A stretch of 64,000 bases of DNA from a phage. Under the pieces are notes generated by a model, which had not been told where the DNA came from, searched no databases, and saw nothing but the letters and a program-made list of their open reading frames with translations. This document shows, one piece after another, positions 4,875-18,260 of the stretch (position 1 is the first letter of the stretch; each line of letters begins with the position of its first letter). Where the stretch lies: assembly GCA_017676145.1 (NCBI GenBank), contig GCA_017676145.1_3628.1. The stretch is one strand, 5' to 3'. Position numbers and translations under genes: made by a program.

Positions 4875-5498
4875 CTAAAAGTATTCATAGAGGTATCCAT
4901 CGGGAGCTGGAATTTTTTCATGAATGTAGTAATCAACACATATTCCTGTTTCTCTTCTACAAGAATTGTGGGATACCCATTCTTTAAGAACGTTGCCATT
5001 CATGTCCAACCTCCTTACATTTTTACACCGTCTACCGCTGGTGCTTCTATGCAACAGAATATCCTCCGTCTGCTTGTCTTTATTTTCTCCCCAGGTCGTT
5101 AAACGGATATTATCAAAAGAGTACCCTTTGAAATCATCTATCCTGTCACAAGAGGGCTTTTTCCTTTTGTCGTATCCGCTGGCTACCCACTGGTCATACA
5201 ACTCTTTGTAACCGTTCAGGTATAGCCACTCCTTAAACTCTTTTTTGGTGTAAGTCGGAGGAGGGTGACCTCTTTGCTTGCTGTTGCACTTTTGAGCCTT
5301 GTACAACACGCGTATTACACCTTTTTCTGAAGAGTCGTGGGAAAACTGGTCAGCCTCCCTACTGGCCTTCTTACAACACTCTTTGCACTTATTAAGATGA
5401 CCGTCAGACATCTTTGGGTGTTTGTAGAACTCGGAGAGGTTTTTCACCTCTCCGCACTTGATGCACCTCTTACAATGCGTGGATTCTACTTTTGCCAT
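4875..5498 (-). CDS. Zinc-finger protein with degenerate HNH-like motif
   Basis: CKRCIKCG...CKECC zinc finger; [19 protein letters not shown] resembles an HNH core with His replaced; ATG at 5498 preferred over the track start at 5585. Confidence 0.45.
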
Positions 5499-6741
5499 AT
5501 TGCAAACCCACCGGAGCGAAAGGTATGTCATCACAGAAGTCATACTGTGCTGGATTCTGATCCATTGGGTCATCTTCCGCATCATCTACAGGAGGGGCGT
5601 CTACAGTGTTTTGCTGTGGAGTGGCTTCCTGTTTGGCAGCTTGAGGTTCTTGATGCTCAGTAGTCCCCGCACCATTCTTGATCCAATCGTACAACGGTTC
5701 AGCAAGATTAGTCAAGACATCTTTTGCCTCTGCAGTAATTGCTGCTGCAAAATCATCAACTTTCGTTTTCTTGTCAATACGGCGACAAGCGTTCAATACC
5801 GCGTTACCAACACTGGCACCTACTTCATCTTCAGTCCGGTTGGTGGCTTGAGCGTACTCTTTCTTAAGCTCGATGGTGACCACGTGCAATGTTTTAGCCA
5901 CATCTAAAGGGCTGTCAATCTTAAACCCGCGATCCAGAATGATCTGCAACGCATTGATACTGTGCCCTGTCTCTACACCAATGGGGTCGTAAGAGGATTT
6001 ACGCTTACCACCAGAACCTTGTGTACCGTTCTCTGCTTTAGGCGGGTAGGCCTTGAAGCCGCTGATAATATTCCCGGTGTCTTTGTCAACAATAGCTGCA
6101 ACACGACCGCCAACCACCAGATCTTTAAGCTGCTCATCAGTGACAACCATGGCACCTTCGCCAATCTTGTGGTCATTAACAGTAACCACGTTGCCAACAA
6201 TCTGAGTCACATCGCCATAGATGCGTAAAACGTCCTGATTGGCATTCTGCTGAGGTTTCTGCTTCTGACCTTGTGATTGTGCACCTTGTTGCTGTTTTTG
6301 TTGCTGTGGAGCTGCTGGAGCCTCTCCTGCACCCAGTTTGACCATCTTAGCCAGTGAGCCTTTGTAATAGGTCTTACCGTTATGCTCATTTGCCTTTAAA
6401 GGGATATTTACGATCCATCCTGGCGTTACTGTTTCCCACTTGTCATCAATTTTAACAGAGACGGAATCTTGATGACCAGGTTTGAGCAATTTATCACCCA
6501 TGCTGATCCAAACTTCTTCACCACCTTGAAGTAGGTTATCAGAAGAATCCAGTTCAGAAATCAGTAAAGAGATGGTATGGCTGGACTCGATTTTCTTACC
6601 TTGCCACACAGTGGTTTTAATACCTGTTGTAGGATCGGCACCTTTGATAGGCTTGATGCTGACACGTTTAATCATGCCGTGAGCCAGTAAAACAGTTTCA
6701 CGCGGATTCATCGGGTTAGCGAATTGTTGAATAACGCTCAT
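5470..6741 (-). CDS. Putative single-stranded DNA-binding protein
   Basis: 423-aa ORF; Q-rich linker [25 protein letters not shown]; acidic C-terminal region [23 protein letters not shown] containing the SSB-type DDIPF tip motif, followed by 15 further residues. Confidence 0.45.
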
Positions 6742-9952: not shown

Positions 9953-10609
9953 TCAGCTTACCGAGAAATTCTGCTCGGACATACTCTTCGGGGACCTCTT
10001 CCCTTTGTTTTTACACCTTGCGGTTTTAGGTATCCCAGTGTACCATGCCCAACTCCTCCCAGTCAAGATATTGGAAATGGTTATTTGATTAACACCGAAA
10101 AGATCTGCTATAGCTTGCTGTGACATACCTGTTTTGGAAAGCTTTAATATTTCGTCAACATCTCTCTCTTTAAGTTTTGCACAGTATGATCTTTCCCCTC
10201 TTGTTTTACAGTAATCGTAGTCCACATCTTGGGCATTTTTTGAAGGCGAGGCCCATTCAAGGTTATCAGCAGCATTGTTTAGACGATTATGGTCTTTATG
10301 ATTAATCGGCACATAATCCAGCCCTGCTGCCTTACACTCTTCTACAAGCTCTTTTGAGGGAGGCTCTAGAAAGGTCTCGGCAATTAACCTGTGAAGCAAT
10401 TCCGATCTTCCATCCACATTTACTTGAATGTAACCGCTACTGTCTACGCTACCTTTTAAAATCCTGTCAGGGACAGCTTTGAAAGTAACTTTACCTGTTT
10501 GGTTACTGTACTTTCTCAGGTAAGACAGCCTTTTAATCCTTCCTTTGCTGCTAACTTCATAGTCGGCCTCCTTGCCAACCAGTTTTCTCCATTCCTCCAT
10601 AGCAAACAT
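9953..10609 (-). CDS. HNH homing endonuclease with C-terminal helix-turn-helix
   Basis: EWRKL...YEVSSKGRIKRL...GYIQVNVDGRSELLHRLIAETF...HKDHNRLNNAADNLEWASPSKN is the classic HNH_3 homing-endonuclease signature; C-terminal MSQQAIADLFGVNQITISNI is HTH-like; free-standing, near the DNA polymerase gene. Confidence 0.8.
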   Translation of the reverse strand: MFAMEEWRKLVGKEADYEVSSKGRIKRLSYLRKYSNQTGKVTFKAVPDRILKGSVDSSGYIQVNVDGRSELLHRLIAETFLEPPSKELVEECKAAGLDYVPINHKDHNRLNNAADNLEWASPSKNAQDVDYDYCKTRGERSYCAKLKERDVDEILKLSKTGMSQQAIADLFGVNQITISNILTGRSWAWYTGIPKTARCKNKGKRSPKSMSEQNFSVS

Positions 10610-10977: not shown

Positions 10978-11296
10978 TAGTTCAGGTAGGTCGTTAAGCT
11001 ACCCCGCACCATTACGTGCATAGCCATACAGTTTCCCGTATGGATCGGACTATCTCACTGCCTTGTCACCAAGGCACCTCTCATTTCGACCGCACTTGCT
11101 GGCCTACTCTACTCGCTTCTTCACCCCAAACTGTGTTGGAGCTATGCTTTCGATAGTCTCTGAACGTTCATCCTCTCGGATGCTTCGCTGCGGATTAGCA
11201 TATTGAGCTTTTACCATGGTTAGGTGTAAAAGTCAACTTAGCCTTCCCGTCAATTAAAGAGGTTTTCGACGTGCATCACTGCACGAAGCCACAATG

Positions 11297-13784: not shown

Positions 13785-15863
13785 TTAAAAAGGTGTTTCG
13801 TCGTCTTCAAAACCAGGAACGTGGTTAGAGGACGGATCATCATACTGAAGGTCTTCCTGTGTGTCAACAGGGTTAACAGTAGGAGTTATAACCTTATCAG
13901 CCACAACCTTGCCAACAGGTGTTTCTACAACTGCATGCTCCTGATCCTCAAACATAGCTTGAGGTCTCCAAACAACCTCTCCACCTTCCCCGTCTGTAAA
14001 CATCTGCATTTCTTTATCCCAATACCAATTGCTGGCATCGTGGAACTTGCCTGTGTGAGGATCCATAACTAAAGTGTCCGCAATACCTAACGTTTTTGCT
14101 GGGCGGTTTTTAAGACCTACTAGACGGACACGTCCACGGGAACGATCCACCATCTCTTCTGCCTCTACCCCAACAACTACCCAGCTAAGTTGCTCCAATC
14201 CGGCACTACCACGAAGGTTCTCTTTTCGTACAGGGTACCAGAAAGGCAACGGATTCCCATCCTTATCCTTAGGAGGTACAATCTCTGTGCGTTTCAGGTG
14301 GGCGATCACCAGGATAAACACATTAAACTGCTTACAGAACGCAGCTAGTTGAGTCATAGCCATGTCAAGCTCTTTGCGCTCATCCTTAACATTAAGCCCT
14401 GAAATCACCATAGACAAGTGATCCAGCACAATGTAACGGCAGTGATACAGGCACACCATTTGTTTAAGCTTAGTGATCAGCTCATCCACAGGGATGGAGC
14501 CGAAATGCTTGAACACTTTAATTTTTCCTGCCTTGGCCCAAGATTGATGAATCTCAGCGTGCTCCTGATCGGTCAGGAACTGACTGGGGTCTTCAACAAA
14601 CTCTTTAACATCAAATCCCAGCTGGTTAGCGTATAGAGAGTTGATTGCTTCCTCAGGATCCTCTTCAAGGTGAATCAGGCACAGGCGATCATCCTCTTCA
14701 TAGTCATCAGCTTTAGGGCATGTTGGATCCATCAAGTATCTTGCAATACAGTGTTCCAGCTTCTTGGCTACAGTTGTTTTACCACCGCCAGATGGGCCTG
14801 TCAGCATCATCAAGGTGCCTTTGTGGAGCCCTTTCAGCATCTTCTGCAATTTAGGGAACTCCGCACTGATATCTACGCCATTGGAAGTCTTCTTACGAAG
14901 AGACTCAATGGAGAAGTCTTCTAAATCAGATACAGCATCAGGCACATATTTGACTGGGTGACGGAACATGTTGACAATATCTTCCAGCTTTTTAGCCTTC
15001 AGCATGTCACGAATATCTTTTACACCATCAGGGTCGTTTACCTCACCTGGATATTCCACGTGGTAAACGTTATCAGCCATCAAAAATGCTGCGATATTAT
15101 GTGTGGCCTCAACACCTTTGATAACGTGTTTTTGCTTCTCTACCTCGTTAGCTGCATCGTTGTCCATTGCAAGGACCACTGTTCCGTAGCTACGGATAAA
15201 TTTCTCATTGTTCGCAAAAGTGTCTACGGCGTTTGCACACCCGCAGTTAATTCCAACAAAAGGCAGGCAGGGTTTTCCTGCCAGATCACCACCATTGATA
15301 ACTGCATCGATCCCATCCTGAACTTCTTTAGCCCACTGCTTCACCTTTGCTGGGGCTTTAGCATTGGTGAGAATCCCTTTTACTTGTATCTGATATGCAG
15401 CTTGCCATGCTGCAATAACATCACCCTCCCCCTCGCAAACGTTAATCTGTTTACGGTTGTTGGAGGATGCACACAGCTTTTGACCAAACATCTGAGAGTT
15501 GGCCTTTACTATGCCAACAACTGAGAAATGGCCCCTTTGCTCTTTAGGGATTGTCCAGTCGCGCTTTTTAAAGCCAGATAGATTACCGTAGCGGTCGTAA
15601 TATGGGAAATATGTTGCAGTGACCGTTACCCCATCTTCTTGAGACAATGCTGATCGCACACCGAAGTATTGTGCAGCCATCAGTCCGATATTTTGTTGTG
15701 GAACAGGGACAATTTTAGTATTTTCTAAAACAGTCTCTACAGTTTCGACCTCTTTTTCATCACGATAGTCTCGTTTCACACTCCCCCCACTTTTATATTT
15801 GGTTGCTTTCGGGTTTGGCTCACCGAAACGGTTGTATGCAGATGCCATGAATTTACTGCCCAT
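13785..15863 (-). CDS. Bifunctional primase-helicase (T7 gp4-like; TOPRIM primase + DnaB-type helicase)
   Basis: 692 aa; TOPRIM-like VVLAMDNDAAN; Walker A MLTGPSGGGKTT; Walker B IVLDHLS; ILVIAHLKR; acidic C-terminus ending EDDETPF; AAGGAG RBS. Confidence 0.85.
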   Translation of the reverse strand: MGSKFMASAYNRFGEPNPKATKYKSGGSVKRDYRDEKEVETVETVLENTKIVPVPQQNIGLMAAQYFGVRSALSQEDGVTVTATYFPYYDRYGNLSGFKKRDWTIPKEQRGHFSVVGIVKANSQMFGQKLCASSNNRKQINVCEGEGDVIAAWQAAYQIQVKGILTNAKAPAKVKQWAKEVQDGIDAVINGGDLAGKPCLPFVGINCGCANAVDTFANNEKFIRSYGTVVLAMDNDAANEVEKQKHVIKGVEATHNIAAFLMADNVYHVEYPGEVNDPDGVKDIRDMLKAKKLEDIVNMFRHPVKYVPDAVSDLEDFSIESLRKKTSNGVDISAEFPKLQKMLKGLHKGTLMMLTGPSGGGKTTVAKKLEHCIARYLMDPTCPKADDYEEDDRLCLIHLEEDPEEAINSLYANQLGFDVKEFVEDPSQFLTDQEHAEIHQSWAKAGKIKVFKHFGSIPVDELITKLKQMVCLYHCRYIVLDHLSMVISGLNVKDERKELDMAMTQLAAFCKQFNVFILVIAHLKRTEIVPPKDKDGNPLPFWYPVRKENLRGSAGLEQLSWVVVGVEAEEMVDRSRGRVRLVGLKNRPAKTLGIADTLVMDPHTGKFHDASNWYWDKEMQMFTDGEGGEVVWRPQAMFEDQEHAVVETPVGKVVADKVITPTVNPVDTQEDLQYDDPSSNHVPGFEDDETPF

Positions 15864-16617
15864 TAATTCTGCTCCTTACTGCAGGCTCGTTTGCTAAGAA
15901 TACAGCTTTAGCCCAGCCACGTGGTGTAAGGCTTCGAATCATCTTCGTCCTTGCACTCTTTCCACCTAGCTTAGCGTGTTGCATAGAATAACCACTAACC
16001 GCATCCACTATCTGCGGGACAGGTTTTGTGGCTGGGATTATAAATCCATTACCTATCCAACCGCAAGTTATTTTTGGGTAGGCATCACGTGGAGCTATAA
16101 ATTCAGGAAACCACGGGTTTACATCATCATCAGGTAAATACCCGCCATAATCTGAAGGATGAAAACGATAATCAGGTTTACGCCACAGTGTTGACATAAC
16201 CCCTACAGGGTTCTCTACATGCCACGGGCAATCATAAATCTCTCCCAACTCTTCTGCAACCCGAGCATCTTTTACAGCATTAATTTGGATCAGAGGGTCC
16301 TTAGCCAGCTTTTTCTTAAAATGTGCAGCACCTGATACTGCTAAATGCGTGCACGGAGGAAATGCAAGAATAAAGTCTGGAGCTGGGTACATGCAAAAAG
16401 TTTCTTGAGGGAACCACGGGTCAATCCAATAATCCACGTAGTGAATGTTGGGATGATCGGTTATCACCTCTGCATAGCTACCATGGTCAGCACCTTCTGC
16501 ATTAAAGCACAGGCACAGATACCCAGCTTTTGCCCAGTCAATGACTGCACCACCAGACCCATCAAATAGACTCCACACAACACCTTTGTGGTGGTGTTCT
16601 TTGTAGATAAATTTCAA
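15853..16617 (-). CDS. Putative compact DNA cytosine-C5 methyltransferase-like protein
   Basis: Motif I SLFDGSGGAVIDWAKAG (FxGxGG); motif IV-like AFPPCTHLAVSGA (Pro-Cys nucleophile); motif VI-like WHVENPVG (ENV); only about 255 aa with no obvious target-recognition domain; TTG start at 16617 with AGGAG RBS preferred over the track start at 16647, which lies inside the terminator hairpin. Confidence 0.5.
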   Translation of the reverse strand: MKFIYKEHHHKGVVWSLFDGSGGAVIDWAKAGYLCLCFNAEGADHGSYAEVITDHPNIHYVDYWIDPWFPQETFCMYPAPDFILAFPPCTHLAVSGAAHFKKKLAKDPLIQINAVKDARVAEELGEIYDCPWHVENPVGVMSTLWRKPDYRFHPSDYGGYLPDDDVNPWFPEFIAPRDAYPKITCGWIGNGFIIPATKPVPQIVDAVSGYSMQHAKLGGKSARTKMIRSLTPRGWAKAVFLANEPAVRSRINGQ

Positions 16618-16633
16618 TTTGCTGTCTCCTAAT

Positions 16634-16662
16634 GCAAAAAGCCCCACCCTTTCGGGCAGGGC
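16634..16662 (-). terminator. Rho-independent terminator (minus strand)
   Basis: Hairpin gccccaccctttcgggcagggc (16641-16662) preceded on plus by aaaaa; identical to the hairpin at 4838-4859; downstream of the CDS ending at 16669. Confidence 0.6.
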
Positions 16663-16668
16663 CTAGTG

Positions 16669-17151
16669 TTAAACCCGGATACCTATTGTATACTCGGTGG
16701 ATACCAATGTCAAATCTAAATTTAAAATTTCTTGCATCTCATAGTATGCGTCCAGGGTGAGATACATTTCCCCATCCTTTTCTACATACTTGTCAAGGTG
16801 TTTGAGGCACTTTGGATAACTATCAAGAGCCGCCTTTAAGCACTCAAACTCTGTGCTGTTGATAAATCCTTCCATCTTGGCTACCCGTTCTGGGGTAACG
16901 ATAGCACTGTAGTGAGATTTAGCTTCCTGAATGCAATGGGTCCAAGCATCGACTTTCTCTTCGAAAAGTCCGAAGAACTTCTTCTTGGTGAGCTTCAGAT
17001 TCTTTAAGTGCTTAAGCACTCGGTTGCCGATCACAGACACATCACGAAACTTAAGGATCACTTTGTCAATATCCTCGCGGCCTATTTTCACAAAGCAAGC
17101 CTCACACATTTCAGGAGAGGCATAGCCTACCTTCCACATAAAATCTGACAT
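16669..17151 (-). CDS. Hypothetical protein
   Basis: 160-aa ORF. Confidence 0.5.
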   Translation of the reverse strand: MSDFMWKVGYASPEMCEACFVKIGREDIDKVILKFRDVSVIGNRVLKHLKNLKLTKKKFFGLFEEKVDAWTHCIQEAKSHYSAIVTPERVAKMEGFINSTEFECLKAALDSYPKCLKHLDKYVEKDGEMYLTLDAYYEMQEILNLDLTLVSTEYTIGIRV

Positions 17152-17163
17152 AGCACTCTCCTC

Positions 17164-17559
17164 TTATTCCTGAAAAGCAACGATATCATATGAACTTGCA
17201 GACGAGCCTGGTGAAGAGTGACTCCAGTCTAGGTCATCAGAGTAGTCAGCATACTGTGCACCACTCCTCAGTTTGTATTTTACCCACTTACCTGGTGCAG
17301 GGTTTTCACCACCTTCCCATGCTTCCCAGCCTTCTGGCAGGCCATCCTGAGAGTAATCGTCCACCTCGCTAATAATCTTAGGGTTTGGCACCAAGACCCA
17401 TGCAGGCTCTTCCTTCTTAGCAAGTGTCCACACAATGTATGTGTCTGAGCAGGAGCATGTCAGTAAAGTATACCCACTGTTCAGAACTTCTGCAAGCTCT
17501 TTTTCAGCATCTTCTAATTTGGTTAGGTGGTATTGGATAATCTTCACATCTGTAATCAT
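17164..17559 (-). CDS. Hypothetical protein
   Basis: 131-aa ORF. Confidence 0.45.
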   Translation of the reverse strand: MITDVKIIQYHLTKLEDAEKELAEVLNSGYTLLTCSCSDTYIVWTLAKKEEPAWVLVPNPKIISEVDDYSQDGLPEGWEAWEGGENPAPGKWVKYKLRSGAQYADYSDDLDWSHSSPGSSASSYDIVAFQE

Positions 17560-17864
17560 TAGAAGCCTCCTACTTCTTCAGCAAATGCTGCTGCTGTTGT
17601 TGCTGCATCCAGATAGGACTCTAGTTCACGTGCTGCACGTTTATAAATCGAGTGGCGCAGATCGTTTGGCAGCTGGTGAAAATCCACCTCTTCTCCGTTG
17701 TGGTAAACATGCACATCCGTAATCTGTCTAAATCCATAATAATCAACATCAGAATCACGGCACTCTGGATCTGGCAACTGGACAACTGCCTGAGCCTCTA
17801 CAGTGAGCATATCGTCAAGTTCGAAATCTATTTCAAAAGTGTATGGTTTATAACGCTTCATCAT
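17559..17864 (-). CDS. Hypothetical protein
   Basis: 101-aa ORF. Confidence 0.45.
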   Translation of the reverse strand: MMKRYKPYTFEIDFELDDMLTVEAQAVVQLPDPECRDSDVDYYGFRQITDVHVYHNGEEVDFHQLPNDLRHSIYKRAARELESYLDAATTAAAFAEEVGGF

Positions 17865-17921
17865 TCGGTGTTCTCTTCGGTTTTGTGGGGAGGAGTTCCT
17901 CCCCTATATACTCACATCTTA

Positions 17922-18260
17922 CTACTGAAGGTCTTCAGAGTCAAGCTCAAAAAGAATCAAACTATGCATGTTTGCAGAGAGCTCAACACACTCTGCAACG
18001 ATAAGGGTCTGATAGTAAGGTTCAGCACCCTCGATGTCTTCGTTAAAATCCACAACAAGGTAGTCACCTTTGTTAAAGGTGTATTTGTCAGATGTAAACG
18101 CAAACCCTGCCCAGTCCCCTACAGGGTCTTTATCGATCACCTTTGTTAGCAGGAGGTCTTTTTCACGAGATCTTTTAGTAAAATCGTGAATCACAACAGC
18201 CTTCTCTTCAGGATTTGGATTTCCACACACGTAGTTAACTATATTTCTCCACAAACTCAT
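17922..18260 (-). CDS. Hypothetical protein
   Basis: 112-aa ORF. Confidence 0.45.
   Translation of the reverse strand: MSLWRNIVNYVCGNPNPEEKAVVIHDFTKRSREKDLLLTKVIDKDPVGDWAGFAFTSDKYTFNKGDYLVVDFNEDIEGAEPYYQTLIVAECVELSANMHSLILFELDSEDLQ

Follow-up and report, generated by a model that had tools for sequence, protein, structure and literature searches.

A probable compact DNA cytosine-C5 methyltransferase gene in the replication block of an rV5/FV3-like Escherichia coli phage

We analysed an open reading frame (ORF) on the minus strand, at 15853..16617, of a 64,000-nucleotide stretch of phage DNA (GenBank assembly GCA_017676145.1, contig GCA_017676145.1_3628.1), hereafter called the window, which is from an rV5/FV3-like E. 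coli myovirus (Vequintavirus). With a probability that we put at about 0.88, the gene encodes an orphan DNA cytosine-C5 methyltransferase (C5-MTase) that depends on S-adenosylmethionine (SAM), belongs to the compact, Dcm-like phage family phrog_757 and methylates replicating phage DNA. The predicted fold, the conserved catalytic residues and the homology to an experimentally tested enzyme carry this assignment. In phage FV3 and many relatives this gene already bears the annotation of a DNA (cytosine) methyltransferase, and the family already has a tested member.

Family, motifs and predicted fold

The protein matches the PHROG profile phrog_757, 'DNA methyltransferase' (E=8.2e-87, 291 bits), residues 10-261 of its form of 264 amino acids (aa) aligning with positions 3-226 of the 247 in the profile. 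Homologues were found by tblastn in 1,504 phage records, mostly of Escherichia, Klebsiella and Salmonella phages, and by protein search in 3,348 clusters at 90% identity. An exhaustive profile search reached 2,044 clusters at 50% identity with E<=1e-3, 201 of them with E<=1e-30, and almost all of the matches listed (the best 150 of the 2,044) are 210-260 aa long. Judged by these homologue numbers and by the conserved catalytic residues, the ORF is far beyond what chance would produce. A search with the Pfam model PF00145, which the first-pass annotation of this DNA had proposed as a check, gave no match to the window protein even at E<=10; weak matches in 17 of 31 close relatives (best E=1.3e-6) tie the family only marginally to the classical C5-MTases.

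The first-pass annotation, made from the letters alone, had named three C5-MTase motifs, and all of them are present in the order I, IV, VI. It had also given a size of about 255-264 aa; the ORF is real, with a length of 254 aa from a TTG start or 264 aa from a GTG start. The coding sequence (CDS) and its motifs are listed below, together with the corresponding residues of the Dcm enzyme of phages K42 and KarlJaspers, the tested relative described in the next section.

15853..16617, minus: compact C5-MTase-like CDS, TTG start, 254 aa, TAA stop at 15853-15855, from the ORF list and its translation
16549..16572, minus: motif I, the putative SAM-binding loop SLFDGSGG, residues 16-23
16330..16362, minus: motif IV, the catalytic Pro-Cys loop FPPCTHLAVSG, residues 86-96, with the predicted nucleophile C89, which aligns with C82 of K42/KarlJaspers Dcm
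16201..16221, minus: motif VI, HVENPVG (an ENPV variant), residues 133-139, in which E135 aligns with E128 of K42 Dcm
16057..16089, minus: motif VIII-like strand RDAYPKITCGW, residues 177-187, where K182 replaces the arginines of the canonical QxRxR
15970..16041, minus: short variable segment at the position of the target-recognition domain (TRD), IIPATKPVPQIVDAVSGYSMQHAK, residues 193-216, about 24 aa, more variable than any other part of the family alignment
15913..15939, minus: C-terminal motif IRSLTPRGW, a putative equivalent of motif IX/X, residues 227-235

Within motif I, conservation reaches at least 90% in close homologues at F18, G20, S21 and G22, and the loop resembles the 'SLFDGI' stretch of DNMT3 in the HMMER alignment. 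Across 83 diverse members of the family, C89, E135, P154, Y180, W187 and P195 are invariant, and F86, P87, T90, N136, P137, D178, K182, T184, R228, S229, P232 and G234 are conserved in at least 90%; P88, too, is invariant or nearly so; R233, in the motif X-like TPRG(W/F), is an invariant arginine across the family. K182 aligns with K175 of K42 Dcm, and K176 of that enzyme corresponds to I183 here, a position that is also L or T in other members.

In the family alignment the canonical motif VIII, QxRxR, is absent and RDAYPK(K/I)TCxW stands instead, and the canonical motif X, GNxVP, is absent as well, a C-terminal block LGGKSxRTKxIRSLTPRG(F/W), with its (S/T)PRG(F/W), replacing motifs IX and X. 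These replacements would, we infer, be functionally equivalent to the canonical motifs. An R-x-W near the C-terminus resembles the 'GRSW' of DNMT3, as present in DNMT3A; because phmmer with the C-terminal 45 aa returned no matches, we only infer an equivalence of motif X to this 'GRSW' or to N304 of M.HhaI.

The TRD of a canonical C5-MTase comprises about 80 aa. The first reading of the sequence had seen no obvious TRD here, which is borne out in that no large domain lies between motifs VIII and IX, and needs amending in that the variable segment of residues 193-216 occupies that site. The segment lies in the gap that separates the motif VIII-like strand from the conserved LGGKS...IRSLTPRG block, and in the window protein it is of the 'GYSxQH' type ('GYSMQH') and carries a clade-specific 4-aa insertion, QIVD. 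The protein would thus have, approximately, the kind of minimal recognition element found in DNMT3.

A structure prediction, likewise proposed beforehand, returned a C5-MTase fold. The AlphaFold2 model, built from 31 homologues, has a mean predicted local distance difference test score (pLDDT) of 90.8 and a predicted template modelling score (pTM) of 0.89, with a lower pLDDT of 76-86 in the segment at the TRD position. In a Foldseek search against the PDB the catalytic domains of DNMT3A and DNMT3B came out on top, at E about 1e-7, and the matches in BFVD include a 'Site-specific DNA-cytosine methylase' of Vibrio phage Vc1 and a 'DNA-cytosine methylase' of Escherichia phage Henu8.

Tested relatives, proposed mechanism and target sequence

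The Dcm protein of KarlJaspers (Bas06), a BASEL phage of the Drexlerviridae, is 53% identical to the window MTase (E=9e-86). In phage K42, whose Dcm is almost identical to that of KarlJaspers, all escapers from retron Ec86 had lost or silenced the 711-bp gene (Wang et al., bioRxiv 10.1101/2023.08.16.553469, later published in Cell Rep 2024;43:114857). In the same study, expression of K42 Dcm raised the 5-methylcytosine (5mC) content of the multicopy single-stranded DNA (msDNA) of the retron, as measured by liquid chromatography coupled to mass spectrometry (LC-MS), whereas a C82A/E128A/K175A/K176A mutant did not, and mutation of CCTGG in the msDNA stem-loop abolished the retron defence against K42 (bioRxiv 10.1101/2023.08.16.553469).

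Two further homologues come from phages whose DNA has been digested with EcoRII. The gp52 protein of Pantoea phage AAS23 is 52% identical to the window MTase, and in EcoRII digests the virion DNA of AAS23 shows the behaviour of Dcm-methylated DNA (PMC8004638). The gp74 protein of Klebsiella phage KP36 (47552-48244, minus) is 48% identical and has PSC in place of PPC in the catalytic loop; KP36 DNA, with its 155 EcoRII sites, was not cut by EcoRII, and its authors, who saw no cytosine MTase gene, credited a host enzyme (PMC3620542, 2013), a conclusion that was probably caused by the invisibility of this family to domain databases. Taken together, the results on K42, AAS23 and KP36 make methyl transfer to cytosine C5 a well-supported activity of the family.

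The conserved residues are consistent with canonical C5-MTase chemistry, in which the target cytosine would be flipped out of the DNA, C89 of the FPPC loop would attack its C6, and E135 of the ENPV motif would protonate or hold its N3/N4. K182, in the motif VIII-like strand, would stand in for the usual arginine contact, and the SLFDGSGG loop is predicted to bind SAM, the methyl donor. The target would be read by the minimal segment of about 24 residues together with the catalytic loop, in the manner of the catalytic domain of DNMT3, which of all solved folds is the closest. The gene is probably expressed with the replication module, through translational coupling to the primase-helicase gene and with the DNA polymerase gene adjoining, so that the enzyme would methylate newly replicated phage DNA.

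CCWGG or a similar short site would be the most probable target, and its methylation would render the DNA resistant to restriction of the EcoRII type. Specificity of the window MTase for CCWGG is suggested by its relatives, and an anti-restriction benefit is plausible. CCWGG occurs 92 times in the window, against 85 expected at zero order, at which it is not avoided, and 145 under a maximal-order Markov model; because the latter ratio of 0.63 is similar to those of several other palindromes, the count says nothing about the target of the enzyme. The segment at the TRD position is of the 'NPGW' type in K42/KarlJaspers and AAS23, of the 'FFWAW' type in KP36 and of the 'GYSxQH' type here. As a side effect, enzymes of this kind can trigger retron Ec86/Eco1.

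Weighing the assignment against alternatives

Several observations weigh against a cytosine methyltransferase with this target. As a single sequence, the window MTase has no useful match in NCBIfam, dcm models included, or among PDB sequences, where the best phmmer match is to motif I of M.HaeIII (E=1.2). A profile of close homologues gave only marginal matches to the N-terminal part of DNMT3B in the PDB (E=0.38), and a broader profile of 83 sequences found no significant C5-MTase there and lost the DNMT3B matches too. In hhalign, the family profile aligned with E. coli K-12 Dcm at a probability of 0.4% and in the PC loop only; 'Dcm-like' is used here as a functional nickname and not as a statement of orthology, because the family profiles fail to reach E. 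coli Dcm. The canonical motifs VIII and X are not present as such, and the acidic residue of motif II, an Asp in 90% of the wider family, is an Asn (N39) here and in close relatives. With its 4-aa insertion, the 'GYSxQH' segment is unlike the one in the tested 'NPGW' enzymes.

The experimental record has weak points of its own. The target of K42 Dcm was assumed from its name and is supported only by the msDNA mutagenesis, not by genome-wide mapping, and MG1655, the host in that work, is dcm+, yet its msDNA had low 5mC without the phage enzyme (bioRxiv 10.1101/2023.08.16.553469), so that host Dcm evidently did not methylate the msDNA site. Host Dcm is a confounding factor in the resistance of AAS23 and KP36 DNA to EcoRII. 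In the BASEL study, phage MTase genes showed no simple link to restriction resistance, and none of the restriction-modification systems tested there cuts CCWGG (PMC8594841). For Vequintavirus orthologues, our literature search turned up neither methylome nor restriction data.

One alternative is a variant of the favoured assignment and does not exclude it: the protein may be an active C5-MTase whose clade-specific segment directs it to a different or relaxed short target, with another protective spectrum and another capacity to trigger retrons. The segment is, after all, the most variable part of the family, its type differs between the window MTase, K42/AAS23 and KP36, the specificity of the tested K42 enzyme was never mapped genome-wide, and the recognition element of about 24 aa resembles that of the DNMT3 enzymes, which read only 2 bp. 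On the other hand, three different TRD-like segments occur among homologues from phages whose DNA in every case behaves as methylated at CCWGG, and CCWGG is abundant in the window. Relaxed specificity would moreover create RmC sites, which McrBC attacks, in the K-12 hosts on which such phages plate. We regard a target other than CCWGG as unlikely, though still a serious contender.

The first-pass annotation had also considered a C5-MTase fold repurposed for another base modification, that is, an enzyme that transfers a non-methyl group (for example carboxymethyl from carboxy-SAM (Cx-SAM), as CmoX does) or starts a hypermodification pathway. The selectivity of CmoX depends on an Arg that replaces the motif X Asn, and E. 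coli supplies Cx-SAM, made via CmoA (PMC12783734). The invariant R233 in the motif X-like TPRG(W/F), a candidate counterpart of CmoX R350 at the position of M.HhaI N304, and the availability of Cx-SAM in E. coli would fit such an enzyme. However, DNMT3 proteins, which are plain methyltransferases, also have an Arg at the putatively matching 'GRSW' position, the window motif is FPPC where CmoX has SPPC, and the FV3 annotation holds no gene for CmoA, the CmoY ligase, TET/JBP, a hydroxymethylase or a DNA glycosyltransferase. With a 53%-identical homologue that makes 5mC in a cmoA+ host besides, the suggestion finds little to stand on and we consider it very improbable.

Hardly more credible is a protein that is catalytically dead, or that serves the replication module chiefly as a DNA-binding or regulatory factor, with its motifs as relics, although the Asn in motif II, the missing canonical motifs VIII and X, the absence of a Pfam match for the window protein and the tight coupling of the gene to that of the primase-helicase could be read in this way. 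The active K42/KarlJaspers enzyme shares the N39 and K182 features; the catalytic Cys, the ENPV motif and the SAM loop are strictly conserved across roughly 2,000 clusters; and among Vequintavirus phages the protein is 97-99% identical against 93-96% for the DNA. By a similarly long shot, the invariant motif X-like Arg and the clade-specific segment might mean that the Vequintavirus clade is not a simple Dcm mimic and instead uses an alternative cofactor such as host carboxy-SAM, or places its mark at a non-CCWGG target; if this were true, rV5-like phages would have a cytosine modification not yet described in coliphages.

Among known systems, the K42/KarlJaspers Dcm, the trigger of retron Ec86/Eco1, is like the window MTase in its full-length homology, its size (236 versus 254 aa) and its motif set, and both are orphan genes in early or replication blocks near helicase genes. 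The window MTase differs from it in an N-terminal extension of about 10 aa, in I183 where K42 has K176, and in 'GYSMQH' with the 4-aa insertion where K42 has 'DNPGW'; the K42/KarlJaspers phages are 50-kb siphoviruses, whereas the phage that carries the window MTase is a 136-kb myovirus (Vequintavirus). The DNMT3A and DNMT3B catalytic domains share the 'SLFDG' motif I and its distance from the PC loop, a target-recognition element of very small size and, possibly, the R-x-W motif near the C-terminus, but identity is only 12-17%, homology to the window family is not detectable by sequence profiles, and the window MTase has no ADD or PWWP domain, gives no evidence of dimer or tetramer interfaces of the DNMT3 type and belongs to a bacterial virus.

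The window MTase has motifs I, IV and VI arranged as in E. coli Dcm/M.EcoRII, M.HhaI and M.HaeIII and presumably also shares their 5mC product, possibly at CCWGG. It differs from these classical enzymes in its size (254 aa versus 472 aa for Dcm and about 327 aa for M.HhaI), in having no large TRD and no adjacent vsr or restriction gene, and in the replacement of the motif VIII arginines and of the motif X GNxVP. CmoX, the phage DNA cytosine C5-carboxymethyltransferase (PDB 8yf3), is longer, at 333 aa, and has SPPC for FPPC; cmoA and cmoY neighbours are absent from the FV3 annotation, and the product of a window MTase homologue is 5mC.

As a member of a known and abundant family of compact phage C5 cytosine methyltransferases, the gene is ordinary and offers little that is new. 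The family is often labelled 'hypothetical' because sequence searches against Pfam, NCBIfam and the PDB miss it. An enzyme of 230-255 aa that reads its site with a segment of about 24 residues would represent a minimal DNMT3-like architecture, and there is value also in the target of the 'GYSxQH' type. Since retron Ec86/Eco1 is triggered by members of the family, rV5-like therapeutic phages with this gene may be vulnerable on hosts that carry the retron, for example BL21.

Gene start, flanking signals and genomic neighbourhood

The longest form of the ORF, 15853..16647, begins with GTG and encodes 264 aa. We consider the 254-aa product initiated at TTG the likely one because a GGAG lies 8 nt 5' of the TTG, the GTG lies inside a hairpin, and both the FV3 RefSeq entry, which has the same 765-bp CDS labelled 'DNA methyltransferase', and the cluster representative P0001, 98% identical to the window MTase, use the 254-aa form. 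The signals around the gene are as follows.

16626..16629, minus: putative Shine-Dalgarno sequence GGAG, 8 nt upstream of the TTG start, read directly in TTAGGAGACAGCAAATTG
16639..16664, minus: GC-rich hairpin with a U-run after it, separating the gene upstream (16669..17151) from the start of the MTase gene, terminator-like, with an 11-bp stem
16685..16713, minus: sigma-70-like promoter match TTGACA-17-TACAAT (11/12), upstream of the hairpin, a consensus match only
15853..15863, minus: 11-nt overlap of the end of the MTase gene with the start of the primase-helicase gene, ATGGGCAGTAA, in which the MTase TAA overlaps the helicase ATG; FV3 is annotated with the same overlap

A start at the GTG (16647) was discarded, since this codon falls within the 3' arm of the hairpin upstream and goes unused in the annotations of relatives. 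The RNA of this hairpin (16664..16639) folds at -22.8 kcal/mol, with z=-2.6. The sigma-70-like match (16713..16685) sits in the 3' end of the upstream gene and is followed by the terminator-like hairpin and then by the MTase ribosome-binding site. This order of promoter and terminator before the gene is odd and could reflect a read-through or attenuation point, or a promoter match due to chance; the region holds 7 sigma-70-like matches against a shuffled expectation of 5.2 +/- 2.3, a number that is thus not above chance.

The genes of the region all lie on the minus strand, and the replication block reads, in the order of transcription, RIIB, helicase, small ORFs, the MTase gene, primase-helicase and DNA polymerase. 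The MTase gene had been placed directly downstream of the primase-helicase gene (13785..15863, minus); given its strand, it is instead transcribed upstream of that gene. The overlap of the two genes suggests co-transcription and translational coupling.

The window maps onto FV3 positions 116,158-136,947 and then 1-43,429, and over a 5-kb region more than 100 phage records match it at 93-96% identity. The gene is present in about 117 of 122 close Vequintavirus records, and in relatives it is labelled 'DNA methyltransferase', 'DNA cytosine methyltransferase' or 'hypothetical protein'.

FV3-type phages have up to five annotated methyltransferase-like genes (ORF062, ORF094, ORF115, ORF211 and ORF215), namely two short ORFs (about 180-190 aa) labelled 'DNA methyltransferase', a Dam-like N6-adenine MTase, the C5-MTase-like gene and a variable adenine MTase cassette; only the C5-MTase-like gene falls within the window. 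The adenine ('EcoPI Mod-like') MTase gene of 1,344 bp is found in FV3 and in roughly half of the listed Vequintavirus relatives and is absent from the window, where its site is at 17858-17905, between the ORFs 17559..17864 and 17922..18260 (minus). The junction at this site agrees in sequence with each of the two flanks of the FV3 cassette; the shared element is intergenic, repeated, about 45 nt long and contains the hairpin GGGGAGGAGTTCCTCCCC, which suggests that the cassette was gained or lost by recombination between such repeated elements. The C5-MTase-like gene is the conserved methyltransferase of the clade, while the neighbouring adenine MTase cassette comes and goes.

The window and FV3 also differ by a flux of homing endonucleases. 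The window has two extra ORFs on the minus strand, 4875..5585 and 9953..10609, one of which encodes a protein of 236 aa without a Pfam match and the other a protein of 218 aa with NUMOD4 and HNH_3 endonuclease domains, and at 11168-11183 it lacks FV3 ORF208, an HNH endonuclease gene adjoining the DNA polymerase gene. Sixteen 'Campylobacter phage' records are among the near-identical matches, and MG065669.1 is a further such record; these records, labelled Campylobacter jejuni phages, are 80-99% identical to this rV5-like phage region and look like mislabelled or contaminant genomes and not true Campylobacter phages.

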